DNA from: Pseudovirgaria hyperparasitica | Lineage: Eukaryota | Assembly (NCBI GenBank): GCA_010093815.1 | Contig: ML996592.1 | Length of the DNA stretch: 54,926 nt | Strand: one strand, 5' to 3' | In this document: in pieces, positions 26,576-54,926 of the stretch | How positions within the stretch are numbered: the stretch's first letter is position 1 | Layout of the letters: every line of letters starts with the position of its first letter | Made by a program: the position numbers and the translations under genes | Notes under the pieces: model-generated | What the model saw: the letters and a program-made list of their open reading frames with translations, nothing else | Told to the model about the DNA's origin: nothing | The model's database searches: none

Positions 26576-26819
26576 TATATAATAATAATAATATTATTAT
26601 ATAGCTATATAGAGTAGTTTACTCTATAGGTATATACTTTCTCTAGTCTAAGCTATTATATAAGAAGAAACCTTATATAGAAAAACTCCCTTCTCTCTAT
26701 AACTATATCTTATTAAGTCTTTATATCTTTCTAAGTATATAGCTATTAAATATACCTATAGACCTATAACCTATATTATTATTATTTTACCCTTAGATAG
26801 CACGTATAGAGTATAGAGA

Positions 26820-26851
26820 TTATTAGTTAAGGGTTACTCTTTAATTAATAG
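26820..26851. repeat. Palindrome copy 9 (LINE A5 ORF2 end; degenerate)
   Basis: TTATTAGTTAAGGG-TTA-CTCTTTAATTAATAG. Confidence 0.8.
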
Positions 26852-31393: not shown

Positions 31394-31424
31394 TTATTAG
31401 TTAAGGGCTATTCTTAACTAATAA
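31394..31424. repeat. 31-bp palindrome copy 10 (LINE A5, upstream of ORF1)
   Basis: TTATTAGTTAAGGG-CTA-TTCTTAACTAATAA. Confidence 0.9.
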
Positions 31425-32404
31425 AAAGAGAGTTAATATATTAGTATTTAGTAGTAGTAGTCTATACTTATATTTTTAAAGAGTTTTTAAGTATATATAT
31501 ATAGTATCTCTATATATTAATATTATTATATTCTATATACTATATATATACGTGTATTAGAGATTATTATACTTAGTATACTCTATTAATTAATATATAT
31601 AGATTACTATATTACTCTAAATTAACTAGTTTAGTCTCTTAGAGTATAAAGAAGTTTTTCCTTTAATCTCTAATAGAGATATAATTTTAACTTAATTAAT
31701 CTTTATAATTCTTTTAGATATTAAGAAGGGGTTAGTATATAGATAACTTTTAATCTAATATTCTAATACTTAATAATAGAAGTAGAGTTCTTCTTTTTAA
31801 TATCTATCTCTTTCTACTTAGTTAATCTACTTTATCTTTAGTATCTTCTCTATCTTATAGTAGAATCTAGATTCTTTCTTCTAGTCTCTACTTATATATA
31901 TAGAATCTATAATAATATCTCTATTCTTATTCTTTCTAGTTATAGTATAATACTTATATAATTCTATAGCTACTATACTTCTTATTATAGTAACTATATT
32001 CTTTTTCTATTTCTTATTAGCTATCTTATACTACTTAGTATCTTCTAAGTTTATTATAATTTTCTTAATCTCTTCTATAAAGCTATAGTAGTCTATAATT
32101 TTTAGTAAAGAGACTATATATATATATTAGTAGAGTTTAAGAAGATATTTTAGAGATAACTAATTTTTATACTATCTTTCTAGTTATCTCTATTAGTACT
32201 TAGAAGAAGTCTATTAAATTTAAGTTAGTATTTATACTAAGATTAGCTATTAATCTATTTAAGTAATAAAAGCTTTTCTAAGGCCTTAGTCTTTTTTTTA
32301 TTATCTATAAATATATATTTAAGTTATAAAAAGAAGACTTTAGAGTTCTTATCTTTTATAGAGCTCTTTTTTTTCTAGAAGTATTATATTTAGTTTCTTT
32401 TATA

Positions 32405-32975
32405 TGTAAACTTAACCTCTACTATATCTAATAAGTTTATATAAGGTATTTCCTTATTAGGAATAGCTTAATATTAGTAATCGATATTACTAATATTATC
32501 TACTTATATATATAAATACTCTATACTCTTATAGAAGTTTCTAGAACCCTCTAGAAACTTCTAGAGGTCTTTAGAAACACGAACTTCTATAGAGTTCTAT
32601 TAGGTTCTACTATAGAGTCTATAAGTTCTATAGAGTTCTACTCTACTCTATTCTATTCTAAGGAAACTACTAGAGCTATAGAACATATACGTACGTCTAG
32701 AGGTCTAGAAGATTCCTATTATTAATTAAGAGAAGGATCTAGAATATATAAGAAGGAATATATAAGGAACGGTCTCTCTATGTATTTAGTTCTCTCTCTA
32801 TCTAGTCTTTACTTTAAGAATTATACTATATTCTTATTATCTTTAAGCTATACTCCGCCGATCCGTTTATTATATAATAGTCTATTATAGCTAGATCCTA
32901 TTATATAACTCTATTTAGATATATATTCCTTATATAAGGAATATTATATATCTATTTATACCTGCCCTTTTTACA
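32405..32975. mobile_element. Solo LTR (571 bp), RIPed
   Basis: Inverted termini TGTAAA...TTTACA; 5-bp TSD TTATA at 32400-32404 and 32976-32980; internal short tandem CTAGAA/CTATAGAG-type repeats and TATATAAG boxes. Confidence 0.8.
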
Positions 32976-34324
32976 TTATATACTAGTAGAGTATTATAGA
33001 TAATATTCTAATAGTATTCTAGAGATAGCTTTAGCTTAAATATAGATTATATCTTATAAAAACTATATAACTATAATAGATAGTCTTAGAAGATAGCTAT
33101 TTTACTATTTTAGAAGAATAGCTTCTAGTTCTTAAATTCTAATAGTTTCTAGTTAGTCTATAAAGATAAGACTATTTTTTAAGTAAAGACTTTAGTAGTC
33201 TATTTATAGTAGAGTTTAATTAATTCTAGAAGATTTAGTTTCTTATAATAAGAATCTCTTATTTAAAGACTTATAAGTATTATAGTAGATTAAAGATAGT
33301 TTTCTTAGTACTTTATAACTCTATATTTAAATCTAGGTCTTAGTCTAATTTACCTCTAATATTACTCTATATATTATCTCTAAAGTCTATAGTAAAGTAC
33401 TTAGAGAGTAAAATAGAATTAAACTTAATATTATAGAAATATAATTTATATATAGATATAAAAGTATTTATAGAATATAATAAGTTTAATAAGAGAGAAA
33501 GCTAGAGTCTACTTAGCTTTCTTAAGATATAGAATAGAGTATACTATTAAAAAAGAGACTTACTTAGACTTACTAAATAGAAAGAAAGTAATATAGATAT
33601 AGTATACTAGTATTAAGTATATCTAGAATTTACTCTTAATAAGTAATTAGCTAGAGAGTAGTAAGATCTACTTAGAAATATATTAATATTCTTAGAATTA
33701 CTTAAATTATAGCTAAAAATATAGTCTATATTAGAGATAATCTAATTATTTTAGTCTATATAGATAATATATTAGTTTTTATATCTAATACTAAAGATAT
33801 AGATAAATCTCTATTTAGAGATAACTAAGTAGTCTAAATTAGATATATCTAATCTAGAGTAAGCTAAATATTATCTAGATATAGAAATTAAGAGAGATAG
33901 AACTAAGAGTTCTATTATATTATTTTAATATTCTTTTATTAAGAACTTATTAATTAAGTTTAATAAAGAAAATATAAAGCTATCTAAAATTCCTTTATTA
34001 TTTGATATTAAATTAGATAAAAACCTATTATAGACTAAATTAAAAGATATTAGATAATTCTAAAGGGAAATTAGTTCTCTTATTAATTTAACTAGTCTAA
34101 CTAGATATAATCTAAAATATATAGTAGGCTATCTAGCTAGATTTATATCTAATCTAAGTCTAGAATACTTTAAAGCCTTAAATAAGCTATAGTAATATAT
34201 ATTATTACTAACTACCAAGTCCTCTTATATAATTATAGATAAACCGATGAGCCACTTTCAAAAAATTCTATGCCATAGCCAAAAAACACACTCCCCGAGC
34301 CGTCCTCCCTCCTTATATATAATC

Positions 34325-35593
34325 ATGTCTAGCTTAAAAGGACCTTCACGGACCCCCAAATCACAACTTTCGGCCAGTATGGAACACATTCGATATGCTG
34401 TTACCGCTGATCCCCTACCTCACCAACCCTTCACCTCCAGCTCCAGCAAGCCAGACCCGAATCAAAAACGAACTGACCCCTTCCAATTCGGCACCCGCGT
34501 GCTTCTTCCCAGTGACGACCCTTTTGCGTATAATGCCTGGGACCACGCCGTACCAGACGCTGAATACGCCTTGTTCGCCTTGGCACAATATGAGTTCCAG
34601 CGCTCTGCACCGGTCACGCCGTTTGACAAAATGCGATTCAACGCACAGCCCGAAAGATTCTGGAACGCATTCTACGGGAATAACACGAGTAATTTCTTCA
34701 AGGATCGCAAGTGGCTAGCGCAAGAGTTCCCAGTGCTAAATGCGATTACAAGCGAGGGTGCAGAATCTGCAGCACTGTTGGAGGTTGGTGCCGGGGTTGG
34801 AAATACAGCGTTTCCAGTGCTTGCTCTGAATAGGAATCCCAGGTTGAGGATTCATGCAGTAGATTTCAGCGTCAAGGCGGTTGAGCTGATGCGGGCGAAT
34901 GAGAACTACGTCGAGCCGATGATTCGCGCCGATGTGTGGGATGCGACGAGTGATATGCTGCCGCCAGGAGTGTGCGAAGGGAGTATAGATGTGGTCATTA
35001 TGGTTTTCGTATTCAGTGCGCTGGCACCAAAGCAGTGGGAGGCGTGTGTGAGGAACATCTGGAGAGTCCTGAAGCCGGGTGGCTGTGTGCTGTTTCGCGA
35101 TTATGGTCGAGGTGATTTAGCGCAAGTGCGATTCAAGAAGGGGAGATATCTGGAGGAGAACTTTTACATCAGGGGGGATGGAACGAGGGTTTATTTTTTT
35201 GAGAGGGAAGAATTACGGAACATATGGTTGGGAAGGATGTTCAAGAATGGCAATGATGAGAAAGAAGTCCATGTAGACAATAGGGAAGAGCTCGACGAGA
35301 GGGACACTGGGATTGAGGAAAGTCTTGACACACTCAGCGTGAGTATGAGAGCAGTCATGTCCGAACCGTCGCCAGCCTTCGAAGTCGTCAAGCTGGGCGT
35401 CGATCGACGAATGCTCGTTAACCGGCAACGCAAGATAAAGATGTACCGATGCTGGATGCAAGCAGTGTTCAAGAAGCCCGGTCCGACATCCCTTCTCGAT
35501 CAGTTATCTACAGACGCCATTTCACGTCAAAACATAGGCGACATTATGCCTCCAGAAGCAATGGACGAGGTAACAGTTAGAGCAATTCCCTAA
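34325..35593 (+). CDS. TRM140: tRNA N3-methylcytidine (m3C32) methyltransferase, Trm140/METTL2 family; single exon; start could instead be 34247 or 34379
   Basis: FGTR.L...FAYNAWD; WNAFY...NFFKDRKWL..EFP; SAM motif LEVGAGVGNTAFP; FRDYGRGDLAQVRFKKGR; ENFYIRGDGTRVYFF; DRRMLVNRQRKIKMYRCWMQ. Confidence 0.92.
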   Translation: MSSLKGPSRTPKSQLSASMEHIRYAVTADPLPHQPFTSSSSKPDPNQKRTDPFQFGTRVLLPSDDPFAYNAWDHAVPDAEYALFALAQYEFQRSAPVTPFDKMRFNAQPERFWNAFYGNNTSNFFKDRKWLAQEFPVLNAITSEGAESAALLEVGAGVGNTAFPVLALNRNPRLRIHAVDFSVKAVELMRANENYVEPMIRADVWDATSDMLPPGVCEGSIDVVIMVFVFSALAPKQWEACVRNIWRVLKPGGCVLFRDYGRGDLAQVRFKKGRYLEENFYIRGDGTRVYFFEREELRNIWLGRMFKNGNDEKEVHVDNREELDERDTGIEESLDTLSVSMRAVMSEPSPAFEVVKLGVDRRMLVNRQRKIKMYRCWMQAVFKKPGPTSLLDQLSTDAISRQNIGDIMPPEAMDEVTVRAIP

Positions 35594-35661: not shown

Positions 35662-37473
35662 TTACACCGCAAAGCCACCGGAGTTCATCTGCCTTGGCTC
35701 ACCCGCAGCCTCAAACGTTCCGTTACCTAACCTCCTCAACGCCTGGGCCGTACTACCTCCAGGCGCTACAAAAGTGATGTTATGCCCCTTCTCGCGCATA
35801 TAATCCACCGTATCGTTACTGTACGTAAACTCAAAGCTCGTGGTCAAGGGAATTAGCTGGTCATGCAAGCGCGGCTCTTTTAGTGCTTGCAGCGTTGTCA
35901 TGTTGCGGTCCAAGACATTCCATATGTTTTGTATGGTCGCTGTGGTGATGCGGCTACCCCCGGCGGCCCCGACGACAAGGTATAGCGTGCCATTGGGGAA
36001 CTCAACAATTACGGGCGACATGGACGAGAGTGGACGTTTACCAGGTCGGACGTAGTTGGCTGGGCTGGGGATATAGCCGAAGGCGTTGGTCACGTTCGGG
36101 ATGGAGAAGTCATTCATTTCGTCGTTCATGATTATACCGGACTCCGGGACTACGACTTGCGAACCAAAGAGCAAATTTATAGTCGTTGTAAGGGAAATAG
36201 CCATACCAGATGCATCTGCGACATTGATGTGTGAGGTCCCAGGGGTGTTGAGAATTTCAAGACCCTTGGGATCATATGCAGAAGCGTTCAAGGTGTGGGA
36301 GTCTGAGATGCGACCTTTCACTGCTAAGGCGAGGTCATTGGAGATCATGTCCTGGACGTACTCGTCCATATCTGCCAGGAATAGAGGGTCGCCGAGTTCG
36401 GTCCTCTGGTGTCAAGTCAGCTCGCTGAACAGCGCTACACGTGGTGTAGTCGCCAAACATACCATGCCGTACGCAAATTTCATCGCTTCATCCAACCTAT
36501 GTGTCGTGATGTTGAGCCCTGCTTCGCCAACTGCTTCATACTGCTGCAAGATGTTTAACGCTGCCAACGCCACAGGCCCACCCCCTGGCGCACCAATACT
36601 CGACACTTTGTATCCTCGGTAGTCAATCTGTGTAATGTTTCGGACTGCCACAGTGTAATTCTTCAGATCATCCAATGTCATCGTACCATTGCAGCTCTGC
36701 AACGTAGTAATCATTGCCTCAGCCAGCTCTCCTTCGTAAAAGGCATTCGGGCCACCGTTTGCGATCTTCTCCAGTGTATTCGCATACCGTGCCCGTGTGA
36801 TCGTCTGGTTCAATTGAAGCCTCGTCCCATTCGGCGCAAAGTCTTTCGCGAACTCTGCGTTATGCACCAGGAAATCCCCGGTGCTGCCTGAAGCTACAGC
36901 TGAGGCCATGTATGATATCAAATCCTCGTTGACACGCCACCCAAGTCGCGCGACCGCGATCGCGGGCGCCATCAACTCCGCCCAGCTAAACTTCCCACTT
37001 CCGTAGTTCTCATAGATGTGCTGAAGCCCACGAACCTCGCCTGGCACGCCGCTCGCTAGTCCGCCGTAGACACTTCCGTTCGAGTTATCCTTGTACATAT
37101 CCTCGTACGCTGCAGCTGGTGCAGTTTCCCGGAAGTCGACAAACTCGAACCGCTCCTTTTCAGATGTGCACAAGCTGTCCGGCTTGCGAATCAATCCAAA
37201 TCCACCACCTCCAACGCCACTGTGGTACATTCCCACAACGCCGACGCAAAAGACAGTTGCGACGAGAGCATCGGCGGCGTTGGAGCCATCCTTTAGAAAG
37301 GATGTGCCAATGCGGGCGCAGATGTCAGACTCGCAGGAGACGGCGCCAATGGTAGACTCGTGGGCCTGTCCGTGATAGTATGGCGAGTAGTCGGATCGTT
37401 GGCCATATAAGGTTGGGTTGGCGAACACAGGACTGAGGAGAAGGGCTACATATAAAGTCCGAGGGGGGGCCAT
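35662..37473 (-). CDS. GGT: Gamma-glutamyltranspeptidase (glutathione hydrolase), 584 aa; exons 37473-36463 and 36405-35662
   Basis: N-terminal hydrophobic signal; MYHSGVGGGGF, DFRETAP, SGVPGEVRG, autocatalytic G|TSH, TTTINLLFGS, NDEMNDFS, KRPLSSMSP, GAAGGSRI; phase-0 intron 36406-36462 (GTATGT...GCTGAC...CAG). Confidence 0.95.
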
Positions 37474-37656
37474 AGCCGGAAATTGGAAGTGCCAGCCAAA
37501 GGAAGACTAATTAGTTTTATCGACTTTTTAGACTCCCTCGAGTACTAAGTAAGCCCTCGCTATACGTAATAAGTAATACTAGGAGCATAAGAAAGATTAA
37601 GAAAGAAAGACTTAAGAGAAATATAAATAGCTTTATCTCTATAGATCTAGTTTAAA

Positions 37657-38227: not shown

Positions 38228-40496
38228 ATGGCCCCTCGTCGGCGATTAGATAATAAGGACGCAAAGCATCGCTCGGCGGAGTACTATATTAGCCAGCGCA
38301 AGACGTTCAACAAAGCCGAAGTCAACGTGCGAAACCACAGCCCGTCGACCAGGACGCTGAAGAATCTGGTCCACAAGAAATGGGAAGAGTATGGCCTAGC
38401 TATCCCTTCGTGACGAGACTTCCGCAGCCTGTTCTCCCTCGTGGAAGCCTAGTGTAAACTGACGTCCTCAATAGGTATTTTCGCATCGTGGACGGTGATG
38501 CTGTAGAGGCGCTCAAGAACTTCGAAATGATAGATATCTACGGTTTCTTTGACTGGTGGATCGAAGAGTCATGCGGAAGTTTTGACGCTTGCTCCACGTT
38601 GCAGACCTATTGGAACGTGCTGGGTCTTGTACGCCATGAAAATTTCCATCTGATGGTGGATCCGACCACAAAGGAAGAGGCCACGAATGTAAGTGAGCGT
38701 CAATCTTGCCACGAGGTCGCTCACCCCTTCACAGGCAAGGCAATCGCTTGCGGTAAAACATCGACTCCGAAAAGAACCCAAAGAAAAGCCGATCATGCGA
38801 GCGGAGGACGAGTTTGAGTGCCTCCAGACTCTATGGAGCTCCCGAGAGATCATCTTCGATTTGGAATTGCACCGCCTCGTGCTTGCTCTCATCATCCAGC
38901 TAGCGGGCATCACGGGTAACCGGCCGAAAGCACTCCTCACCCTTCGCTACAGGCACGTCCAGGTAGCCTTGCTTCCCGACCCTAGAGGGGGCAGCCGACC
39001 ACGGGTCTTGATCGAATTGAAATTTGAGCAGACCAAGGGTTACCTAGGTCAGAAGGATGCGTAAGTCCCTCCCCTTAAGTTCAAATGTGCAAAAGCTCAA
39101 CCTGAATGGCCTCTAGCAATACCATTCCTGTTCCAGATATCCTTAACGAGACTTGTTTGATGCTTTGTCCGCACATCACTCTTCTCGCCCTGGCCTTCAG
39201 GCGCGGCGCATTCGCCGTGCCCGATTTGACGCCGGCGCAGTTCTACGACCTGAAAGTGCTTCCTGGACAACGACAACAGTTGATTCCATGGAAAGAGGAG
39301 GTGCAAGACGACTATCTATTCCCGAGATCAGTGAAGACGTCACTGGGGATCGAGGTTGGCCATGATCACCTTCCATACGATTCCCTGCGCCAACGATTGG
39401 CCAAGATCGGCGAGGTCACCGGAATGGCATTGCCCGTAGGAGCGTATTGCTTCCGACGAGGGAATGGAGAAGCTTTGGACAGCAGCAGTAATGTTGCACG
39501 TTCTGACCAGGACGAATCTAGAGTGGCTAATGGGACACAGGCCACATCAGCGAGGCACAGCGTAATCTATGCCTACAACACGGGCCCAACTCGGCTGTAT
39601 TCCAGCGAAACTATCTATCGCGACACATCACTGCTGACACACAGGCGGCGTTCCGTGGACTCGAACCCCAGACGGATGTGATGCGTGTGGCTACCGGCAT
39701 GAGCCGTACTATCGACAAACGGCGCCCTACTCGCCTCAACCCGGAGCAGCAGGAAGAGGCTCATCGTCACCCTCGGGTACAGAAATTACTTCGGGAGAAA
39801 CTTGATCTGAAGGCGCAAATGAAGGACCACGGCCGAACTGTGAAGAGCTTCGAAGGTACTGCTCTGTATGATAGGTACCGGCTTGCTAAGCAAGCGTACG
39901 AGGGCGAATATATCTTCCAGCAGAGGTCGCTATTGAGACAAATGAAACAAGTCTTCAACTCTCAACAGCCCGTATTCGATATTGAGAGTCAGATACGCAA
40001 GACAGGCTCTGATAACGAGGATGGATCTAAGTCTCTTTTGTCGACGCGGCCCGAGCTGATACCTGAACGCGTTGCAGCACTTGAAGCTCTTTTGCAGCTA
40101 GTCCCATCCTCGCCGGGATCAGAACACGAAGACCGGGCTAAAGCCGTGCAGACACTTGTCGAATTAGCTCACGTACAAGACGGGCACCCCGTTGTCGTAC
40201 GGCGTCAAGCGCGTCGGCTCCTCAGTCCGCTCCCTGCGCCCGAGAGACCCCTATCCTTAGACTGTAAGCCACTGCAATGCTTCCTCTGCCTTGGGAACGC
40301 AAAGAACCCTGTGGCGCAGCGATCGTGGGAGTTTCACAGCAGAGGTGACTTGAAGAAGCATCTCCTTCGTCACGCGCAAAAGCATGAGGGCAAGTGGCCT
40401 CTTACATGTCCCATAGACGGGGAACGGATCATTCACCAGCAGCATTTGTTAAGTCATGCACACGCCAAACACAAGACGCCCTTGATTATAAGGTAA
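38228..40496 (+). CDS. DUF3435 tyrosine recombinase (Starship captain) with C-terminal C2H2-type fingers, 675 aa; exons 38228-38388, 38475-38688, 38735-39060, 39117-39487, 39541-40496
   Basis: Four GT-AG introns (86, 46, 56, 53 nt) join into a 2028-nt open frame; motifs STLQTYW, KEKP, LAGITGNRPKALL.LRY, TKGYLG, LCPH..LLALA, YCFRRGNG, SEAQRNLCLQH, VFQRNYLSR, MSRTIDKRRP, CFLC...KKH...H. Catalytic R-K-(Y)xxR-H-Y set present. Confidence 0.92.
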
Positions 40497-40621: not shown

Positions 40622-41416
40622 TCAGTGATGTATGCTACCAGGAGGAAAGAGATCGCGAAAGCCTCGTTCCGGGAAGACAAGTGAGAAATCACCGGAAATG
40701 ATACTATTGATTGCGATCGCGGGCGCAAGACGTTCAACGTACTTGTGCTGTAATACAGTAGATAATGCGCATGGTAGGTCACTGGCCATCGCATAACTTT
40801 CTAAGGTCGGTGTCACTGTAGGAGGCAGCAGAAAAATCTCAGGAGCATCTTCTACAGAGCCATCTCCACGCTGCTGTGCCAACTGTCGACTGATTTCGAT
40901 CGTGTCCCACTCTCCACTCTCTTCTTCATGTTTCTCATAGTCGTCGATATACTGTGCGATCTGGTTAAGGTCAATGTACCCTTTACAGTCGAACCATTTC
41001 CGTATTATCAAGCCCCATGTCCAAGGCCAGTTATCGTTCCATCGATACGATGCAGCATCAAGTTTAAGCCGAGCCGGGAGTAACGACGAGGGATCGATGT
41101 TGTGTTCGAAACAGGTGACGTGGAAAAATTTACGCTCGCGAACTCCAAGCATAATGCGGTAGTCGTCTTTGATCTCGACGTGTGAGCTCCTAGCCTCTTT
41201 CGCAAAATTACAACAGGCAGCTGAGCACCGCGCTCTTGCCATGTATTTGGGAGGCGTCAGCTGCAAGTAAGCTTCGAGGGTTAAATCATTGTCGAACTGC
41301 TGCACCAATAGTGTTCTTTGCTCCGCAATCGTTTCCTCGTCTGTCCCTGGAGGGTTTCTTGCACCCTCAGCAATATCTCTTGCTCCATCGTGCTCGGCAT
41401 TCTCTTCGGACATCAT
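40622..41416 (-). CDS. Hypothetical protein (264 aa) with a PARP-type zinc-finger-like motif, convergent with the captain
   Basis: Uninterrupted ORF; ARARCSAACC...IKDDYRIML...KFFHVTCFE resembles zf-PARP R.C..C...I....RI......HxxCF; followed by a Trp-rich WNDNWPWTWG segment. Confidence 0.65.
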   Translation of the reverse strand: MMSEENAEHDGARDIAEGARNPPGTDEETIAEQRTLLVQQFDNDLTLEAYLQLTPPKYMARARCSAACCNFAKEARSSHVEIKDDYRIMLGVRERKFFHVTCFEHNIDPSSLLPARLKLDAASYRWNDNWPWTWGLIIRKWFDCKGYIDLNQIAQYIDDYEKHEEESGEWDTIEISRQLAQQRGDGSVEDAPEIFLLPPTVTPTLESYAMASDLPCALSTVLQHKYVERLAPAIAINSIISGDFSLVFPERGFRDLFPPGSIHH

Positions 41417-43597
41417 GAGGTCTGCCGTAGAATCTTCGAATGAGACCTGCCTAAATTTTTTTCTTCGCCTGTTTGGTCTGCTTCGGTGGAGGCTAGATTG
41501 TGTACATTTGGAGAGCTTGTGAGCTGATGCAGAAATGCACTGGTGTGACCGAGGTGTCTTCCGTCAAGATGGGCCGATAGCCTTATTATAGAAGTAGAGA
41601 CGGATACCCTTGCATTTATATATCTGTCTCCTCAGCCAGAACATTGAGCACTTTGTTTGAGCGCGTGAAGGCACGGATTCGAGGGCATTCTGGTAAAGCG
41701 TTTCGATGGACTTCTAGAAGGACTTCGGATCCAAGCTCTCCCGCTACGCCGCACACAGACGACGCTTGGATGATAGGCCTCCATGCCTTTCCAGATTACC
41801 GGCATACGCTCTCAGTCACTTCTTTAAATCAGTGTTTCAACTGTTGAGGTATCAAGCTGCAGTCTTGTTTTAACAAGCCAGATTGGATTTGTAGCAGTCG
41901 CTGTTGGTATCCCAGCGGCAACGGCAGCGTAGGCGTGAACTATGGCCGCGTCTTCTCCGCACCCTAGCATCTGCGCTCCAAGATATTTACAGTTGCCGTA
42001 GACGTAGAATTTAATTGCAGTTGCAGGGACTACGCCTGCAAGGCTTGGCCCGAGACCTCGATAGAAGCCGCGCCAGCCTTCGGTATGGGAGATGGAGCCA
42101 ATGATCTGGAAGGTGCCGCGAATGTGGTCCTTCGATGGACCAAGAAAAGTAAGCCTGGACTGGACGGGAGACGCAGGAACGAGAGAAGGGCGGTGGTAAT
42201 CTGATTGGAGTCGAGTTCGCAGACCATCAAGCGGGGATGTAACAAGCGCTGTGGCTAATCCTCCATTGCTTTAAGCAACAAGTCAACTTTGTATAAGTAG
42301 ATCAAGGCTGTTCGTGACTTACGCGCCAGCAAGCAGATGTACCCAAGATCGTACCGGTCTCTGCTCTATCGAGCTACTATTTTTTGTCTTTGGAAGTATT
42401 GCTGAAGACTGAGAGCTGTGACGCATCGATTCCTGTGCCATTTTCGTGGTTCATCGACGGCTATGTGCGTGCAATGGAGTGCGAGCTACGACGAAACAAG
42501 TCGCGTTGAAACAGATGTACACGCATGCGACACAGAAGAATTCATTGGAAGACCAATCAAACGAGCAGTGAGAGAAAAATTGAGAGCGTGTTGATGAATA
42601 TGGAGCTTCTGTAATATCGCAGTGAAAATCTCGAGGAAACACGAATCTAAGCTGCGAGAAAGTCTTGGAGTTTCGGCAGAGCCGAGGAGTCCCCAGGGGC
42701 TGAGTCAAACAACCCGAGTCTTGCAACGTCTCCAAAGACTTTCAATTCGGACTGAGTGTAGTCTACAACAAGATAGTTCTTCCACTTCGAAATCAATTCG
42801 CGAAATCTGTAGGTTTTGCTCGTGAACGCGTTGCTCAGTATTGAGGACAGCCGTTAGCCACACAGTGCGCGACATGCTTGAACATTTCAAGTAATCGGCT
42901 CGACTATGACATGGATGTGCAGAAGTGGGCCCATTCACATGCCTACACGGTAGAAAATAAATTAGTCACACAAATGCGCCCAAATTGAATATTATCGATG
43001 CTCGCAGACTTCTACAATTCGCGCGTCGTTTTGACATTGCTGGACGGACGCTGACTAATCAAGAACGGAATGGGTCGTCCCATTTATTTAGCCTGAAACC
43101 TCTTCCAGTAGAAAAGCACAACACAGCGGGAACGCAAATTGTTGGAATTTAGTCGAAATAAAGCATCAGAATACGCGTGCCTGTGGCCGCGATAGTTGCT
43201 ACAGGTCATGGCGCGTCCCCCAACGCCCATTTGCACCTGCTTAGCTGCTGTTGCGGTCACAACGCGCCTGGACAACACACCCTGCGAGCAAGTCACGATC
43301 ACAACGCGTCCGTCAAAGCGAATGGCAGCCATCTAGCCAATCAAGCGAAGCGAAACATGACGACGAAGCCCAAGTACCCGATCACAATAGTCATCACCGA
43401 ATATACAGCCATCGACGGGCTCCCTGCAGAGCACTGCAGAGCCCAGCCACTCGACAATACTTGCAACATCCCGCATCAACAAGCTCTCGAATTGAACAGC
43501 ATCATCTCCTACTTGAATCGAACACCAGACACTCGGCATGCTACTGCAGATGCCACCCAATATTACAGTTATCAGACAGCCTCGCCCACTGTCGCCT

Positions 43598-43618: not shown

Positions 43619-43619
43619 G

Positions 43620-43895
43620 AAAAAGCCGTGGAAAAGGATTGGTCACCCTCCAACACGCACCCGATAACGTCTGAGGAGATTCAAGCTGGAGCTCTCGTGC
43701 CTATTCTATCGACAGCTCGCACGAGCGGAGCGTCATATCCGTACATCAAGACCATTTATGTGCCACACAGTGCCAGTACTGACCTGGGTGGAACAAGCAG
43801 GTGCAGAAACTTCGGACGGCAATGTCGGAGTACGAAAACGACAGGTGGAGAATAATCGCGACCAAGGTTGGGAACGGTTTCTCTCTAGCCTCATG
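43620..43895 (+). pseudogene. Decayed MYB/SANT-domain gene fragment
   Basis: KKPWKRIG...RT (first repeat, decayed); putative intron 43741-43800 (GTACAT...ACTGAC...CAG); then VQKLRTAMSEYENDRWRIIATKVGNGFS, a fungal Myb-like helix-turn-helix, cut off at the dcl2 junction. Confidence 0.6.
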
Positions 43896-46800
43896 GATGG
43901 CACCTATGGCGCTCTCAACGATATCAGAGAAGACCTTCTCGGCCCTGGCTTGTTCCAATTCCGCCCAAGGATATTCATGGCCGTTGTATAGTGCCTCGAG
44001 AATTGCTGCACGAAGGCCTATATGACGCGCATGGATTGCATGCCGAGCTTGCAGTAAGTCTGGCGAGTTGTGACGCAAGAAATGATATAACGACCTGGTG
44101 AAGTCCTGGATTCCAGGTTCGGTGACGGAGTCCCACTTCCGTTTTGCCGTCTTTGGCAGATCGTAGCGCACTTCGGAGATCTTAAGCTCAAACATAAGAA
44201 AGGCGAGGAGGTATCCGTTGACAAGTGCGGTGCGGAACGTATGCATTAGAACGTGCGACAGCGGTGGATTGTGTGCGTACAATCTTGTCGAGATAATGTA
44301 GTCGATCACGGCATCGCCGAGGAACTCGAGTCTTTGGTAGGAGCTTATTCGCTCATGGTGCGGTGGTGAGTACGATGGGTGAGTCAAGGCTTCAGTAAGA
44401 AGAGATACTCGATCAAAGGTGTGGCCTAACAGTTCTTCGACCGGTTTGAAACGCGAGGGCGGAATACCAGTTGTTTCTGGGGTCGCTGAGAAGAGAATCT
44501 TGTTGGCATCATGTATCGAAAGCTATGGTTCCCGGGGAAGTAAAATCTGCATGCATGTCAATGCATCAGATATCCGACCTCTAGACAAATATGATGCGCC
44601 TATCAAGGACTCAACAACATCGGCCAAGGTTTTAGTAGAAAAATTGTCTTTCTGCTTGGCTTCTTGTTTTTCATATTGTCGAGCGTGCACATCAGATAAG
44701 TATTGCGGTCGCCACTTGACACCGGTAAATCCTGTTCGGATGATGTATTGATCGAGACCAGCATCCAGAGATGCTTTGGCAAGGTATCCATTTGAGACGG
44801 TGCGTCCTTTCTCGGCTGTGAGATAGCTCTCTGGCCAGGTAAGATTTCTTGCCATTAGGCGGATCGAAGAGGCGAACTTGAGTAAGGCATCACCGAGATA
44901 TTCCATGCGCTGATAGTTTACATGCTCTCTAGCCGACGTGGCACACAAAGCTGTCAAAACGAGATGCACATCAGTGAAACCAACATGAGCAAATATGCCA
45001 GCGGAAAGATTTTGGGCCACCATGTAAACTTCTAGACGATGCAAGACGCAAGGCGCAAAGGTCACAGCAGTGACAAGATCTGCTGGCAACATTTCGATGA
45101 CACTGTCCGCCAGTTCAAGTTCCAATACAGCTGTATACGCTGAATTTTGCTTTTCCCGGGCATCCACTTGGTGGAGGAAGTCTTTTCTCTTTGGAAACTT
45201 ATTCACCTTCAAAACATATTCCTTGGATCCTTGTGATTGTTCATCTCCTCTTTTATATATTTTTTGGAGTACAAATCGTTCACTGGCTCCATGACGCCGC
45301 ACCAATCCAAGACGACTTGAATGGCCATCCATGATTGGATGCTTCTCGAGGATCGTTGCTGGTAGAGCCCCAGATGTGGTCGCTACAAAGTCGTCGACTG
45401 CAGAAGTACTAAGCTCTACGTTGGGTAATAGAAGCACGACAAAGTCGAACTTGTTGGAAACTAAGCGGTGTGAACCCAGACTTGACGACAAGAGATGATA
45501 GGCGACTTTTTGAAGCGACTCGACCAGATCGTCTTCTATATGCATGGGTTGGTCCCTCTGGAGCTCATAGGAGACCTCGTATACCAGCGACTTGTTCCAA
45601 TATAGATTGTATGGTGGAATTGTAGGTAAAGGCATGGTCGTCATCACGTCAAACTCACAATTGTGGTTAGCACTAGAGAACCGGATGCGATACGTGTAGC
45701 GCTGGTCTCCTATAGCCGTCGCGTGAAGGGTCCAAGGATCCATCTTTGGATTGACTGGTACCATGGCTGGGCGGTCACCTATCATATCGCATTTAGGTGC
45801 TTCATTAACCTCACCATGCAAAGGCAACAAATTGCTGCCAATCAATCCGGCTTCATGCAAGGCCTTGTAGGCTTGAAAAGCAGCATCCTTTCTCGCGTCT
45901 TTCTCATTTTTCCACTTCGAAATACCCTTGTGACGTCGGAGAGAGGCGTCCACAGCCAGTGGAAGGGTAACCTCTGCCGAAAAACAGCCTTCGTTATCTG
46001 TATCGAGTTTAAATTCAGGTTGGTGGTCCGTATGTGGACTTGTCCTCAGGGTGGCGCAAAAATGAAAAAGATGAGGCAATACGCCATCGGAAGTAAGTAA
46101 GGCTCTATAGACAGCTAGTAAGCAAAGCATTGCGAATGAGAACAGACCAGGGTCTGTACTACTTACTGCGTCGAGGCAACATACAAGCTGTAGTCATCAG
46201 CCTCGTCGATTAACTCTGTACTGTTCATAGGCTTGATCTGACGCGACTCATCGGCATACTCGTCTTTCAGGATCTGCTCTAGTGTGGACCATTTTGTCAC
46301 CGAAGACGACTCTGATGCATTTTGAGGTATCATGATCACGAAACTCGAGGCCAATTTTCTGGCCCTGCCTCTGCGCTGCACATACATCTTCAGGTTTGTT
46401 GGCGCATCGAAACATATCACGACGTTACAATTTGGGACATCAATGCCTTCCTCAAGGACACTGGTGGTAACTATGAGGTTTTTACGACCCTCTCGAAAGT
46501 CCTTCAAGGTTTGGTCTTGACCTTTGATATCAACCAGTTCTGCAACGTCCTCGGATCGACTCGGAGATGAAGAAGTACCCACGAAAGCCCCAACCTGGAA
46601 AGACTGTTTTAGGTCGAGATCATTTCCGATCACATCTTCAAGAGCATTCACCACAGCTCGTCTTTCGGCGAAGATAAGACCCCTGAAGTCCTTGTGGTAT
46701 GCTTTCTTGAGATAGCTTATCAGGGCAGTAGCCTTAGCAGATGTACCCTCAGCAGGAGACCCAGAAGATACTAGTGCTACAATTTTGCGAAGCAATGCCA

Positions 46801-48010
46801 TCAGATGAGTCTTTTCTCGCCCGGACCAGCCGAGCATATGTGACTCCTCGTTCATTTCAACCGCGTCTTTGAGCCGGTCTACACACCGCACGATGTAACG
46901 TTCAGCTGCAATTGCGCCAAGCTGCTCACAAACGCTATAAGCCCTAGACTGAATGGACTTCAGCTGTTCCAGGCAATATGGATTCCTTCGCGAATGCCTT
47001 ACTAAGTTTGCATTCGGCGGTCGGATCGTAGCGCATCCTTTCATACAAGTCCTGGATATACGGATCACTCGCGAGATCATAACCTTGGTATGCTTCCTGT
47101 AGTGCTGTCATAATGGCATTACTTCTAATATTTCGCATTGAGAGGTCGACCTGAAAGAATACTGGTTCCAAATTAGGTCGATGCACGTGCTGCAAGAATT
47201 CAGTCTGATGGATCTTAGGAATGGTGACGTGAGAATCCAAGTTCTGCTCGATTGTTCTGAGAATGTCAGAGACCGGCAGATATTATATCTAGTGTACGTA
47301 CTGCAAAGCTTTTGGATCGCTGTTGATCACTGGGCTTGCGGTGAGACCGAGAATTGGCGGTACTAATGATGGGTTCTTTCGTCGCATTGTGTGATAGAAA
47401 TCATTCATAATCCTGTCCATTGGATGGTTCTTAGTACAATGATGGGCTGGGTGGCGTTAGAGATACAGCATTACTATATTGATCAGACATACCCTCGTCA
47501 AAAATGAGCAAAGCCAGTCTGGTCATTGGAACAAAACCATGGGTCAGAGCTTGAGCGAGTATATCCAACGTCGAAACGACTACACTCATATTGTAAAGCA
47601 CTGCATCCCACGTTCGCTGGTCGGTCCACGTGTCGACATTCTCGATGCTTGTGAGTTTTCAAATCTGGTAAGCCGGTAGTAGTGTCTGGAATACTTGATA
47701 CTGTTGATTGCACAGAGCCACAGTCGGAGCTATAAACCAGACAACCTGAATGTCAATTAACCTTGAATCAAACACGTGACCAGCTCCAGGCAGTGACAGA
47801 CATACTTTATACGGGTCGCAAGTCTCTAACTCTGTTCGAGCTCTACTAATGGCTATGTGGGTCTTGCCGCTACCAGTATCCATCTATAAACGAACATTAG
47901 CCACAGAAAGGCATAGAATGGGAAAGCAGTCTCAGACTTGCCGCCACGATTATGTTTTTCTCAAGGCTCTTCTCCAGCATTTCAGTTTGTTAGGACCAAA
48001 ACCGAAACAT
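43893..48010 (-). pseudogene. dcl2: Dicer-like 2 pseudogene: DExH helicase, helicase C, Dicer-dimer domain, RNase IIIa, truncated RNase IIIb; no dsRBD
   Basis: Motifs [131 protein letters not shown]. Introns 47884-47941 (GC-AG), 47746-47805, 47447-47492, 47257-47301, 46105-46166. Disablements: TAA 47990-47992, TGA 47659-47661, frameshift ~46986, TAG 44523-44525, 3' truncation ~43893. Confidence 0.93.
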
Positions 48011-51000
48011 TTCGTTCTCCCGAGCGATATCGATCGGTCTGAAACTTGCACAAACGAAGCGGCTCCCACGAATCTACGTATTCTTATGGTTGAGATCATA
48101 CAAGTCTTATGGTACGGTTCGTCAGGTTTATAGGGTTATTTAAAGCAGGAAGAAATCGTCGAGGAAAGGGTGATGAGCAACAGGAGTCCTAGACAGCTGG
48201 GTGTAAACCGACAGACGCATTTCGCCATGAAGGCTCATCAGGGACTAAGATTTGTTGTTCTTTTGTAGATGAAAGCGTCGGTCAGTTGTACCACAGACCT
48301 CCGATTGGAATGTGCAGCCATTCCAAATCATACTACAGTCACCTAGTCACGTTCTCCCCGAGAATCGCTGTATATGCACGCATGGTTTTAAAGGAGTCCT
48401 GCTAGTGGTCTTGGTCTTGAGTTTAGGGGATCTTTTGTGCCATGTATCTTGCACTCCTCAGTCGTTGGATACTCAGAACAATTGACGCACTATTGGCCTA
48501 CTACACATGCACGCACAGATGTGCCCGGCGCTACAGATCGGACCGTTCTGGTTACCAGGGAACATCATGACACCGCCACACTATCCCTAAGACAAGCGAC
48601 TGAAGACGGGGGGCTGTAATTCAGGCTAGAGCCTGGTTCTGTGTGGTCGGGAATACTGGTACCGAAGACGCCAGTGGCAGGGGAAGGGTGTAACGTGGCC
48701 CTTCCGGAGACTGATGGCGAGCCTTCAGCAAGGGCGGAATGTGCGGCCTGTCCGCTCGCATATACGGCAGCCTACCTATCAGCCGTCACGATATGGTATC
48801 CACTCCTTCCTCTGGTGAGACTCGATTTTAGTGGTGCCGGTGAAGCATAGCCAAGCCAACTGACAAGGTGTAACGAGTGGGTCTCTTCTCGGACGCTCGC
48901 GTTGGAATATGCGGCGCTCGAAACCCCCTTGCTCTCAGGCATGCCTGGTCGACCCTTGCCATTTGAAAACGGACTAAGGTCCAGAGTGTCGTTTCTGCGT
49001 CCCCCAAACGGGGAAAGCAGTCTCTGCGGGTAGGCTGGGGGTGTAGTTCTCTGCTAGAGCATTCCACGGCGGTCGTGAAACGCTTTCCAGCTGGTGAACG
49101 GAGTCGACCCCCTCGAGGTTGGCACCAGGCTTGGCCGCAAAGCCCCCCAGCATCGTAAAACTACTCATTCTCCCTTCGTTGCGAAGCTCCTCACAGCACG
49201 TGAAATTGTCCTACATTATTACCGTCATGTCTCCATCTAATCATGAGAAGCAACCAAAACCACAAATCGACAGTACGGTCTCAGGGGCGTCAGGCCGTCT
49301 GATGGCAAAGGGGACTTGGACCTACAAGCAAACTGATGTCCGTCAGCAAGCAGGTACATGGTGATGTCTGTCCACACATCTACGGTGATGACGTTGTATT
49401 GTTTCTCATGCTCAAATACCATCGAATTTAACCATGGCCCGCATCTCCAAACGAATGCGAGTGTTCAGCTATGCCCGTCAAATTTTCAATTATGGTCATG
49501 GTACGTACGCCTTTGGAGAAAGAACCGTAAAGTGCTGCCCTCACTATTCATGATTAAAAGTACCAAACAGATAAGCAATATTCTTGACGCTTCACAGGTT
49601 CGCGACCGTCCTGACATCTACCAGATATTCCATCATAAAGAGGCTTCATACATTGTTCTGGAGGACATGGCAAGCCACAACGGCCTTGCAAATCCCTCAG
49701 CTAAGTACATCTAACTGTTTCTTTCCCAATGCAATCATTCACCAGAACGTGTCTGCCGTAATGGGACTCGCCGCTTGCCTTCTCTCTCGGACACATATAC
49801 TCACTCAGTAACCACAAGCATTGAGGGGAGCCAGTACCATCAGTGATTCATCCTCATAACACACCAGAATCTAAATTTATAGAATAGATTCTCTAGCGAG
49901 TTCATTTCCGAAAGCCTGCTAAATACATGCAGTAAATCGATTGCGCGTTCCGTCTGACCTACACGTTATGATGGGGTTGAAAGATAGTTGCAGCACATCA
50001 AGCACAATTACAAGAGGGCACAATGATAGATACTGTGGGTCTTCCTCCACCACCCCTGACAGGGTGACGCAGTATACGGGCGGCTGGTGTGCGACAAAGC
50101 GGCACTGGCACTACTGATCGTCGTATGCGGGATCAAAAGTAAGTCCTCCCGCTTGAGATTGCTTCGATGTATGGGTGCATGGATTGCTGCCAAGAGCAGC
50201 TTTATCCTGCCAAATCACACCATGCAGGATATCCCTGCACAACGAATTGGAATCAACAGGAGGATCGCTTCGAAATTGAGAATCTCGAGGAGGTTCACAT
50301 TCTGGAGCAGAAGGTTTAGACCTAATATTGTGACCATAATGATCAATACAGCACTTCGCCAACCTCTCATGATGATGGCGGTTGGGGATAAAGTTTGGTT
50401 GTCGTGGGACTAGAAGACTGGAGATACACAGCAGTGGGTAAGGACGGGGGGAGGGGGGACTACGATTGTGGACTCGGATTCTCCAGTCCCTCATGCACTC
50501 AAGTTCAAGTTCGATGGCGAAAGAAGGACATGTGCACGACGATAGTAGGCAAGTCTCTGCACCGTGAAGGATCAACCTGTCTTGGGGGCAACACGTCCCT
50601 GCTGTAGGCCCCTCATCTCCTTCCCAAAGGTTTGAAGTACCTGTGACTAATTAATAATGTATTATGAACAAGGGAAGGAGTGTCGTCTAGATGACACGAT
50701 GCTAGAAATCATCCATGCAATGTAATCAGTGACAAGAGCATTGGTCTCACCTATGAATCGATTGGGCAGCTTAGGCGAAATCCTACCGGCACAAGCCATG
50801 GGTATAGGTAGCTCTTATGCAGAATAGCAGAGCCTTTAGCAATATGACCCATCGTTACAGTTGGCCCCCTCCATCCTGTCATTTTGGAACTATAGTTTGC
50901 TATGCATAAGTGGCTTAAGGATAAACGTACTAAAAGGGTCTCTTTGCATAATATTACAGGCTCTAGTGACCTTAAAATTGCCCTAGTTGAATGAACGAAA

Positions 51001-51221
51001 TGAGACGCAAATATTCTAGACATCTAGGAATTTAAGTAAAGCTCTAGCTCTTCCAAATGAAATATGCGTTAAGATGGAGTTCCATCACCATTTCCAATTT
51101 TCCTTTGATCGTCCACCTTCCACGACGTCTTTCCAACTTGTTTTCAACTCGATAGCAACGCCCTCGAAATTATAAGACAGGTGTATGAGAGGTCCAGCTC
51201 AACATGCCAACCACACAATAC

Positions 51222-52516
51222 TCAATAGAAGGCCCTAACATAATCTCCTCCGACCTCTCTCTCATCCACATTCGCCAACTCATAGATCTTCTCAACACGA
51301 ACCACATCCAAGCCCTTGCCTAAAGGGCTCAGTGCATCGCTCCTAAGAACACATGAAAACACCATATCCCACCCCTGAACGCCTGACGCATAGAATGCTT
51401 CGGCGGCCGCACTCTCTCTGCTCCCGAATCTCAGTACCTTGAAGACCTTCTCTGTCGGACTCGGCCCTCGTGCGCTAAAGCCCGGGGCCATGCAGGTGAC
51501 ACATGTGTACACGTCGTCGTCCAGTGGTGCAGCAAACACGCGACTAGCCCATACTCTTGGAATGCTGGCGTTCAGGAGAGACTGCTTTCCCCGTTTGGGC
51601 GACGCAGAAGTCTAGGGGGAGATTGGCCGAATGGTAATTACTGTCCGCAGCCGACAGTCTTGATGGTAGTCCCAAGTTGAAACTGTTCAGATCGATACTT
51701 CGAACGACGAGTGCAGCGATTGCAAGCCTTGACGGCAGGGATACCAGCACATCAATGCGAAAGTCTTTAGACTCTACAACAGTTTTGGATAGTACATTGC
51801 TGAGATATAGATAGTCAAGTAAGAGTTCCAGCTTCATGAAATGACTCTTATGGTATAATGCCAGTAGCAGCCCCCTGAGCCCACCTCGCCTCACCATCAC
51901 CCTTGCGTAAGGACTTTGAAACTTCAATCACGAGTCAACAACTACCACTTATCCGTATCCCACCACCAGGGTTCGGAAAGCACATCCCGCTGTGCTGGGG
52001 TCCTCTCTGGCAGGTCTGGTTCACAGTCCCAAAACTTAAGGACACTATTTTCACTCATCGACCAAACCCTCTCTGATATGTTGCCAACACTGGCGTTATC
52101 GACCGGTAGCCCGATATCCACATGGGCCGCGTCACGATTATCAAGTCGCTGCTGATCTGGAGGCAATCCTGTGTGATTGGCCTAGTCAGGATGCTCGGTG
52201 AGAGACACCTCTTCCTGACCGCCGATCAAGTGCGTTTGTCCGTAACGTAATGCAGAAGAGTCCGCAGCATCGGAGGTAATTTCGACCACAGCACGTCGTG
52301 GCTATAGTCACTGCATATTGAGACCTCGTGAGGCGTGGCGCGTCGATGATCCATGGGACAGTATGCTTCGTATTTAATGTTTTCGTACTCTTGGCGTCCA
52401 TTAAGAGCTGCAGTGCGGGGCGGGCTCGGGGGTTGGTCAGTCTTGTTGACATCGTAAGGCCTCCGGATCCGTTCTCGCACCAGACGTAGGTAGAGTTTCT
52501 TAGTGCGCCCTATCAT
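51222..52516 (-). pseudogene. Chain of same-strand ORF fragments; probable decayed gene of unknown family
   Basis: Four minus-strand ORFs (52516-52226, 52166-51942, 51927-51544, 51539-51222) with protein-like composition, separated by stops or short frame changes; no domain recognised. Confidence 0.4.
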
Positions 52517-52736
52517 GCTAATAAGAGAAGAGAAAAAGAGGTTACCTAGGATAAGTCAGAACAAGGAGACTGCCAGTTTGAGCAATACTCGGTAAAGTAA
52601 CGAGTATGATAGCAGATTTCTATACCTGTGTGGCTATCTGAGTATAGTTTGTTCAGTGATGGATTCGTTCTATGTTTACTGTGGTATCACGCCGAACAGT
52701 TGCTAGCGCCAATTTGACTTCCTACCCAGGGGGGGC

Positions 52737-53274
52737 TGTGACGGAACAACTTGACTTGCATACTTAGTGCATCAATCTACAGGCAAGTAGCCCAACATAC
52801 GGCTAAACCGTGGCCCTGACCGCAAAAAAAACGTAGAGGCTGCGTGTTTAAGTCCAAAGCATCATCGTCTTGTATTACAAGGATGCTACCTTGTTGTACA
52901 TAAGATGGTCTACTAAAGAGGCAATCCTATGCGGTTTAATAAAACCAAATATAAGCATCAATTAAGACTAAGCTGCATTCTTTACGCATATTAATTTAAG
53001 TCGCCAATGAACGGTAAAGAAAGAGTGTTACGGCAGTCTACGGAGCCAGCGAGGTACCAAAAATAACGTAGCACCTAAGTAATTCTATAAATAAATCAAC
53101 GCAGCCAAATCAAAAACAGTACAAAAAGGCCAAAACAGTGATTAGTAATGACCGACCTCTTATAAGCGATGTTTTCGGAGGGAAGATCTAGGTTAACTAC
53201 GGCATGCCATATCCACTTCCTAATGTGCTTCCACCAGTCGCAGTGGACTTTATAGTTAGGGTCGGTGCGTCACA
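52737..53274. mobile_element. Possible LTR or DNA-transposon terminus remnant
   Basis: 7-bp inverted termini TGTGACG...CGTCACA, 538 bp apart, directly preceded by AGGGGGGGC (PPT-like); no TSD. Confidence 0.3.
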
Positions 53275-54155
53275 CTAGGCTCTCGCTTTACTATATGCGG
53301 GGTCTCTAGATAATACATTAAGACTAAATAATTACCATGCCAGCTTAACAATGCAAAACCGGCAGATTCTAAGCGCAGAAGAAGTATTATGACTCTGTAT
53401 TTTCCATAACTAAATCTAGAATAACAGTACCGCTAATGTTTGTAGGATTCAAATTAGTAAATCCACTGTTAATAGGACCATCATATTCACATGGGTGGCT
53501 ACCATGACTTTATGTCAGTGTGTGGCTAAATCCGAGGAAGTTAAACCGTATAATCGAGCCGACGGGTACATTAAGAGCTTCTAGAGAGAACTTAAACTAC
53601 CCACCAGCCCCTATAGCCATAGAGAGAATATTAGGATCGCTGTGAGTACCATTCCACAGGACAAGGCGTCTTACTAACGGGATAGGAGTTTGCATTCCAA
53701 ACATCTTTAGGCATGGCAAAATTTGTACGCTTATCCGAGTTTTTAAGTAAGATATAAGGGCATCCAATGGTTTTAGAATCTCTAATCTCGGATCCAGATC
53801 CACACCCTCCTAACATCTTAAAACACCCTCGATCCGGGAACTATATAGTAAACTTAATATCCGGAAATCGGGATTCCTCAAGAATATATAATGATAAAAG
53901 GCGAGCATCCTCTCACGGTCATCGAGGATCTATTGCTTAAACTATCACATATATGTTCTACTGCTCTCTGAGCATTATCAACAATGGCTACTACCGTCTA
54001 AGCTGCTCCAACCTCCCTTCCAGTGCAAAAGTCCAAGTCGGCTTTTTGTCAGGCACGTGCCTGCCAGTTGATTATACATGTGTGCAGCAGTCGTATATAA
54101 GCAGTGTGCTCCACCCTTGAAGCAGTAGCTTCAAGATTCGGTCCTTTTGGTGTAG

Positions 54156-54503
54156 TTGGTTGGTGCGTGGAGCCCGCCTCCTTACACTTTTACTTACCCA
54201 ACTTCATCCACCAACGCTTCACTTGATAAAAACCCTGCGGAGGAGTCGAGCGAAGATGAGCATGACGAAGAACTGGCCAAATCGGAGGATTTTAATCCTG
54301 ACTCTCTCAAGAAAGAGGAGCGCGAGGAATGGGAAAACGAAATCAAAGAAATGGAGAAAGCCAAGCAGAAAGGTGAAAAACCAAAGAAGGTGAAAGCTGA
54401 AAGAGCGGTTGATTGGACCGACGAGTTGCTAGGCCCAAGACCAACAAAGAAACGAACAGATACAAGCAGGTATTACTGCTGCGAAAAAGAGTTGGACAAG
54501 TAA
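54156..54503 (+). pseudogene. Charged (E/K-rich) coding fragment of unknown gene; probable terminal exon or pseudogene
   Basis: Protein-like EESSEDEHDEE...EEREEWENEIKEMEKAKQK...VDWTDELLG, preceded by TGTAG (acceptor-like); the upstream ATG at ~53984 hits TAA after five codons. Confidence 0.35.
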
Positions 54504-54544
54504 AGCGCCTCCAAACAGAAATATTCGTAAGCTACATCATGACG

Positions 54545-54926
54545 GTTAGTTAGTTAGTTAGTTAGTTAGTTAATTCCTACACGGTTTCAGCCGCGATTAC
54601 TCCGCAGCTATGCCCGGCAGAGAGGACCTGTCAAACAGCCGACGCGTTCCGGATCATTTGATTGATCCGTCCCGCCCCACGTCGCCCTATCGCGAACGAC
54701 AAGACCAGCTGTCCCAGCATCCTCCCGTTGCTTCTCCAACTACTATTTACATTGGCCTGTCACGCCTGTGTAACATAGCAGTTCTACTAATTGTACTGCT
54801 GATCTAGGCTCCTTAAGGCTCTCGCCTTGTGTTCCCAACCCGTATACCTAGAGTCTCCCCCCAGTGCTCGACTTCGCCTACGCGTCCCTGACCCGGAATT
54901 GCCCAAGGGTCTCCGTCCGTTCTATA
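54545..54926 (-). mobile_element. 3' end of a second Tad1-like LINE family (B) with a (TAAC)7 tail; continues off the right edge
   Basis: Minus strand: ...RTETLGQFRVRDA* (typical LINE ORF2 end; stop at 54878-54880), ~300-nt 3' UTR with stem-loop AGCTGCG-GAGTAAT-CGCGGCT, then (TAAC)7 at 54545-54572. Confidence 0.7.

Follow-up and report, generated by a model that had tools for sequence, protein, structure and literature searches.

Is a broken Dicer gene that lies close to a Starship captain the cargo of a giant transposon, the wreck of a host defense gene, or something else? We examined this question in a stretch of 54,926 nucleotides (nt), referred to as the window, from Pseudovirgaria hyperparasitica, a Dothideomycete of the order Acrospermales. 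An earlier, sequence-only reading of this DNA had described a near-complete dcl2 gene and had offered two explanations: that a Starship captured a divergent host gene, or that the native dcl2 was destroyed in place, leaving the strain partly deficient in RNA interference (RNAi). DCL2 is the Dicer of quelling and antiviral defense in Neurospora and Cryphonectria. Our analysis favors, with moderate confidence, a different answer: the gene is a decaying, 3'-truncated member of a small duplicated family of DCL2-type genes, and its surroundings are a patchwork of repeats and gene fragments.

The gene reads on the minus strand from 48010 to 43896 and has five introns. Two rows describe it and its public annotation, the latter a model of the Joint Genome Institute (JGI):

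43896..48010, minus strand: DCL2-type Dicer pseudogene, its six exons separated by five introns (Pfam, tblastn with proteins P0002 and P0007, splice sites)
43746-47408, minus strand: public JGI gene model P0001 (1121 amino acids, aa), a patched pseudogene model

In the model that we built, the exons are 48010-47942, 47883-47806, 47745-47493, 47446-47302, 47256-46167 and 46104-43896. The introns measure 58, 60, 46, 45 and 62 nt; four are bounded by GT..AG, and intron 1 has a GC donor (GCAAGT). A tblastn search with the Lepidopterella palustris Dicer-like protein 2 (P0002) covered residues 31–1311 of the query in five pieces. Pfam searches of the minus-strand open frames between 43746 and 47883 returned DEAD, Helicase_C, Dicer_dimer and two Ribonuclease_3 domains. 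The N-terminal helicase is thus present (DEAD, 9e-06; Helicase_C, 7.3e-19), with motif I and DEAH visible and its frame broken by a TAA and a TGA, and is followed by the dimerization domain (PF03368, 6.4e-24) and then by PF00636 twice. All eight catalytic acidic residues of the two RNase III domains (E768, D772, D862, E865, E929, D933, D1063 and E1066 of P0001) were invariant in an alignment of 10 sequences, suggesting that the decay of this copy is recent. P0001, which is annotated 'ribonuclease III [Pseudovirgaria hyperparasitica]', shares 99% identity with the open reading frame at 44523-46193 (minus strand); the best protein match after that, P0002, is only 42% identical. The nearest named proteins are Dothideomycete 'Dicer-like protein 2' sequences at 42–45% identity, and every named relative among the hits bears that name, the rest being unnamed.

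Comparison of the gene with 67 full-length homologues located four breaks in its reading frame:

47992-47990, minus strand: in-frame TAA, at a position that is Tyr in 58/67 homologues
47661-47659, minus strand: in-frame TGA, Arg in 47/67 homologues
46979/46978, minus strand: 2-bp deletion (frameshift), at a Thr conserved in 66/67 homologues
44525-44523, minus strand: in-frame TAG, Trp in 47/67 homologues

Homology to Dicer ends at 43896, and the homologues continue for a median of 129 more residues, so the C-terminus is lost. Reading through the gene with X at the four breaks gives 1282 codons, and an open reading frame for the full protein was not found, given three stops, the 2-bp deletion and the absence of about 129 C-terminal residues. 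The five-intron structure and the lesions described from the sequence alone (three stops, one frameshift and loss of the C-terminus) therefore stood up to Pfam, tblastn, the gene model and the homologues. We infer that the copy in the window yields no working Dicer. The public model P0001 begins past the TGA, and the introns by which it spans the frameshift and the TAG remove conserved coding sequence.

Copies of the gene elsewhere in the genome were studied through contigs of four coded public runs (X1–X4), mapped to positions 35000-54926. X1 and X2 provided DNA contigs; X3 and X4 were taken as RNA-like solely because their contigs skip GT..AG introns, namely those of the captain and one such stretch in the neighboring gamma-glutamyltranspeptidase (GGT) gene, and hence behave as RNA. 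All depths given here are contig figures, not read counts; rare forms are dropped from them, and we relied on the figures for individual contigs. Across 35000-41671, DNA contigs showed 0 differences from the window at depths of 214–287 (X1) and 230–280 (X2), which makes the captain and the DNA to its left single copy by contig depth. This state ends abruptly:

41642..41671: junction at which single-copy DNA on the left gives way to repeated DNA on the right, with contig breaks in all four runs

At the junction, some pieces stop at 41671 and others start at 41642, and the X1 depth passes from 214–287 on the left to 715–1361 on the right. Within the Dicer segment, X1 contigs had depths of 1360 over 45880-46629 (1 difference) and 1361 over 47037-47561 (0 differences), and an X2 contig had a depth of 1133.5 over 46217-47631 (0 differences). 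These depths are ~4–6 times that of single-copy DNA. Toward the 3' end of the gene, two forms occur together at like depth, for example 376/748 at 45162-45270.

The copies differ at the lesions. DNA contigs carried T>C at 44524, which gives TGG (Trp), throughout their depth (558.5/558.5 in X1 and 451.8/451.8 in X2). By contrast, RNA-like contigs retained the T of the window, and hence the TAG (T>C in 0/152.3 in X3 and 0/80 in X4). At the frameshift, RNA-like contigs carried an added TG behind 46978 (69.7/69.7 in X3 and 27.5/27.5 in X4). This addition never occurred in DNA contigs (0/1433.3 in X1 and 0/1133.5 in X2), for which the 2-bp deletion is the sole form. With the two additional letters, exon 5 contains 0 stops, versus 17 without them, and a conserved Thr-Tyr-Cys is restored. 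Thus, when the lesions were checked in sequencing data, as the sequence-only reading had advised, the frameshift was recovered in DNA contigs and the TAG in RNA-like contigs only, the check having been run on contigs. An RNA-like contig over 43896-46020 had 47 differences from the window in 2125 nt; 11 of the 23 listed coding-sequence differences are synonymous, and 140 of the 210 places of change in X1 are transitions. The RNA-like joint 47742>47806 indicates that intron 2 is spliced in some copy, and at least one Dicer copy is transcribed. The listed RNA-like contigs also read on unspliced across the 'intron' that P0001 places around the TAG. In addition, a single DNA contig from X1 and another from X2 pass over 69 nt at 47922-47990, a stretch made up of a portion of exon 1 that holds the TAA and a portion of intron 1; this skip may reflect a further copy that carries a deletion, or the contigs may be falsely joined, one side of it being backed by only 30 letters.

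The segment on either side of the Dicer breakpoint is itself composite. The following features belong to the repeated part of the window outside the Dicer:

41650..42270, minus strand: 3'-truncated copy of a mitochondrial carrier gene (Pfam Mito_carr, 3e-24), at the left edge of the repeated zone
43801..43895, plus strand: exon-like piece that belongs to a different transcribed gene and directly adjoins the Dicer breakpoint (43895/43896)
48300..54926: repeat zone extending to the scaffold end, with a summed depth of 5–80 times single copy

The carrier fragment holds only the first repeat and the start of the second and is cut at the 41.65-kb junction. Its depth is 715 in X1 and 627 in X2, with 7–8 differences in the DNA contigs, and all four runs contain it as another form, with 7–11 differences and a 23-nt gap. 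The match of RNA-like contigs is confined to 43800-43895, the sequence on either side being unlike, and a branch-point-like tactgac and a cag stand in front of the piece, indicating that an exon-like piece of another gene is joined precisely where Dicer homology ends. The mosaic of truncated gene copies and high-copy repeats starts 1.15 kb downstream of the captain and continues to the scaffold end; within the repeat zone, 52862-54076 is at ~1.3–1.6 times single-copy depth. Pfam found no family in 14 open frames at 48.8–54.5 kb or in four open frames at 42.5–43.7 kb. A homopolymer of 21 C occurs at 43598-43618, in the spacer that separates the carrier fragment from the Dicer remnant, and reads are seemingly cut there as well. 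The most abundant repeat of the stretch, at 53620-54284, reaches a summed depth of ~80 times single copy and matched no family. A 33-nt inverted repeat (48993-49025 and 51577-51609, 97% complementary) surrounds 2.6 kb of the high-copy zone; it may represent the ends of a non-autonomous DNA transposon, with no Pfam family inside.

We next consider how repeat-induced point mutation (RIP) bears on the age of the copies. The Dicer segment (43896-48010) has a TpA/ApT index of 0.68 and a (CpA+TpG)/(ApC+GpT) index of 1.26, which are normal-gene values, in agreement with the earlier description of the gene as not RIP-saturated; it lacks the high TpA/ApT and low (CpA+TpG)/(ApC+GpT) of RIP-mutated repeats. 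The left part of the window has a very different composition:

1..34000: AT-rich block, heavily RIP-mutated (RIP indices)

In this block, TpA/ApT is 1.5–1.7 and (CpA+TpG)/(ApC+GpT) is 0.02–0.21. Because un-mutated multi-copy DNA directly adjoins it, RIP has seemingly been inactive since the copies arose. No RIP-mutated relics of the captain or the Dicer were found elsewhere in the window. The block contains two islands of 37–39% G+C, at 8–11 kb and 21–26 kb, and an extreme AT-only segment at 7001-8225, with a G+C content of 8.8% and all six frames open for ~300 codons or more. Under the reading that we favor, ~4–6 near-identical copies (by contig depth) would have arisen through duplication at the DNA level, as suggested by their retained introns, either after the last action of RIP or without RIP. 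The copies would lie within a mosaic of truncated carrier, exon of another gene, Dicer and high-copy repeats.

To place the gene among its relatives, we built a quick maximum-likelihood tree of 32 DCL2-type rows, with no DCL1 row. The gene grouped with three unnamed environmental proteins (support 98), and this group was nested in a clade with Patellaria, Lepidopterella and Pleosporales (95) and then with Botryosphaeriales (100). Its branch length was 0.88, versus a median of 0.47. Haridas et al. (PMC7082219) place the species in Pleosporomycetidae. The position in the tree fits vertical descent within Dothideomycetes and, since the gene falls among Dothideomycete DCL2s, capture from a distant donor is not indicated. 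A synteny comparison used 79 metagenome loci with Dicer relatives, most of them short. The 15 window frames around the Dicer matched nothing in these loci, and the 3393 open frames of loci of at least 6 kb gave 93 matches, all to the window Dicer and 0 outside it.

Other Dicers are annotated for the species. Supplementary file 6 of PMC12663654 lists three for this assembly: the 1121-aa model, a 1590-aa DCL1 and a 1480-aa DCL2; the entry for the 1121-aa model terms it non-canonical, and it was kept out of their tree. Our 101 and 40 protein hits contained no protein of 1480 or 1590 aa, nor did the 150 top-ranked of 24,294 profile hits, and 10 of the leading hits belong, by name, to other species. 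Given the further annotated Dicers, RNA silencing has presumably not been lost in the species. No second close relative from the species was seen among the 101 and 40 protein hits, and the other copies seen in the runs are therefore unannotated and probably not assembled. On the further Dicer copies that the sequence-only reading had wanted looked for, the contigs gave a multi-copy segment, the published table two annotated Dicers, and the protein hits no second close relative.

The captain, which ends at 40496, lies 3.4 kb from the Dicer remnant, the distance noted earlier. It and its single-copy neighbors are as follows:

38228..40496, plus strand: intact DUF3435 tyrosine-recombinase 'captain', 675 aa (RNA-like splice joints, open spliced frame)
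40622..41563, minus strand: open frame of 313 codons (orf313), single copy, covered by RNA-like contigs, of no named family
35662..37506, minus strand: GGT gene with one intron (36406-36462), the single-copy left neighbor
34196..35590, plus strand: methyltransferase gene

Four captain introns (38389-38474, 38689-38734, 39061-39116 and 39488-39540), all GT..AG, are skipped by X3 and X4 contigs, and the spliced model is identical to P0142 (EJ05DRAFT_505659). The DUF3435 match scored 391 bits over profile positions 2–417 of 418, and DUF3435 frames lie at 39106-40496; the nearest relatives of the last exon are in Lepidopterella (55% identity) and Coniosporium (53%). The captain is therefore intact, transcribed and spliced, it is single copy, and it reads toward the Dicer and the mosaic. 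The look-alikes of orf313 are unnamed ascomycete hypothetical proteins only. Between the GGT gene and the captain there are 31 AAT units (37673-37765), where contigs of the public runs are cut.

A published survey includes this captain. The starfish supplement of PMC11162782 lists one recombinase for the genome ('psehyp1_scaffold28 181344 183609 psehyp1_505659'; Table S3) and gives no element boundaries, and the corresponding row of its Table S8 reads 1, 1, 0, taken here as one recombinase and 0 elements. Table S4 and Table 1 of the same source place it in fam05, which is Prometheus; the assignment is theirs. The offset between the two coordinate systems is 143116 (181344 - 38228), and 143116 + 54926 = 198042, which is the size of the scaffold that carries P0001. 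The window is therefore the scaffold end, and only 14.4 kb are available beyond the captain. We found no direct or inverted repeats in the window that pair the region upstream of the captain with downstream DNA. Rfam gave 0 matches in the window, indicating that it contains no 5S or tRNA target.

We consider it unlikely, but a possibility of some weight, that a single-copy Prometheus Starship runs from ~37.5–38.2 kb past the scaffold end, with the carrier, Dicer and repeats as its cargo, the pieces having been picked up from copies elsewhere in the genome. The state and orientation of the captain would suit this, as would the arrangement of ordinary single-copy genes on its left and of an orphan frame, gene fragments and repeats on its right; the upstream boundary of elements reported with starfish usually lies at most 2 kb from the captain (main account in PMC11162782), and a figure legend of PMC9156397 names Argonaute among the genes drawn in Starships. 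However, no repeat joins the two sides of the captain in the window, and starfish called 0 elements here, its overall tally in that account being 559 elements versus 10,212 solo recombinases. The other Dicer copies do not lie behind such captains, there being one recombinase in the assembly, and a single-copy captain contrasts with a multi-copy Dicer segment, the two states meeting at 41642-41671. No captain relative was found in any of the mostly short metagenome Dicer loci (0/79). Because the only Starship-type recombinase of the genome is single copy, we infer that Starship transposition did not amplify the Dicer family. Of the earlier cargo proposal, an intact, expressed and suitably oriented captain is thus upheld; the ends of an element were not found, and the Dicer is not single copy. 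The other proposal, that the sole native dcl2 was destroyed in place and the strain is partly RNAi-deficient, is highly improbable. Grouping with Dothideomycete DCL2s is what vertical descent predicts, and the annotated 1480-aa DCL2 is absent from the relatives found, so that either gene may be the true orthologue; nevertheless, supplementary file 6 of PMC12663654 includes both a DCL2 and a DCL1 for this assembly, the segment is multi-copy with single lesions lacking in other copies, and the Dicer breaks off at 43896, where a fragment of a different gene adjoins it.

The Dicer sequence could instead be a consensus in which several paralogues were collapsed or mixed where the scaffold ends, an explanation to which we give little credence; in that case the four lesions need not share one copy, and one or more copies may be whole and working. 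In support of a mixed consensus, the scaffold ends in repeats 7 kb on, DNA contigs never carry the window's T at 44524, and at 41.8–42.7 kb six of the seven listed window letters are absent from DNA contigs, the seventh (41828) being present in X2. Moreover, the RNA-like form combines the TAG with an intact frame at 46978, and the proteome holds one gene model of this type despite the 4–6-fold depth. On the other hand, both lesions in the listed rows are present in runs of this organism, each in one or more of them, and the frameshift is the sole DNA-contig form at 4–6-fold depth, so most copies are broken. We return to a decaying member of a duplicated DCL2-type family as our preferred reading, and note several points that weigh against it. 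The depth tool itself warns that summed contig depth does not equal copy number, and the other copies are missing from the annotated proteome, no second close protein having appeared among the 101 and 40 protein hits. The lesions are unphased in contigs, such that the window sequence could be a mosaic of copies; RNA-like contigs retain the TAG, so no copy is demonstrated to be intact; and the listed contig rows, beyond which there are 290 further variant rows, cover the frameshift and the TAG and do not reach the TAA and TGA. The annotated 1480-aa DCL2 is missing from the hits and may or may not belong to the window family. Lastly, a captain that borders single-copy genes on one side and accessory-looking DNA on the other, and that points into the latter, has the look of a Starship 5' end.

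Segmental duplicates and mosaics of gene fragments occur in repeat-rich compartments of fungal genomes. The window shares with such mosaics its truncated copies of unrelated genes, sharp breakpoints, high-copy repeats and assembly end, but differs from them in that its copies are un-RIPed although the 34 kb next door are RIP-mutated. Relative to DCL2 of filamentous ascomycetes (the 'As1' clade of PMC12663654), the window gene has the same domain order and keeps the catalytic residues; unlike that clade, it is broken four times, lacks the last ~129 residues and occurs in several copies, in a species for which another DCL2 is annotated. With Starships of the Prometheus family (PMC11162782), the window shares an intact DUF3435 captain with accessory-looking DNA on its 3' side. 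By contrast with these, no ends, target-site repeats or empty site have been defined for it, and its single-copy captain stands near a Dicer segment that is not single copy. The nearest parallel is 'Ago1 (Argonaute)', shown as Starship cargo in the legend of PMC9156397, which is likewise an RNA-silencing gene near a captain; Ago1 is drawn there inside defined elements, whereas the window Dicer is dead and no more than a candidate member of an element. We found no report of a Dicer inside a Starship in the literature searched, one preprint's Dicer not being cargo, and a term search of PMC12910237 returned no Dicer in a Starship.

These results identify P0001, annotated as 'ribonuclease III', as a gene model patched together over a pseudogene, mark the one captain of the genome as intact and transcribed, and suggest that the assembly under-represents a duplicated Dicer family. 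A more speculative extension, which we regard as a long shot, is that in this mycoparasite a DCL2-type lineage has turned into accessory multi-copy DNA, with one copy carried as cargo of the genome's only Starship, and acts on silencing. If this were true, transcribed truncated copies could be decoys or repeated triggers of small RNAs against the Dicer family, and the copies would amount to a mobile factor that modifies RNA silencing in the host, not simply to junk. If the gene does lie inside a Starship, a silencing nuclease would be riding on a giant transposon, which would bear on the arms race among fungal genomes, viruses and mobile DNA.

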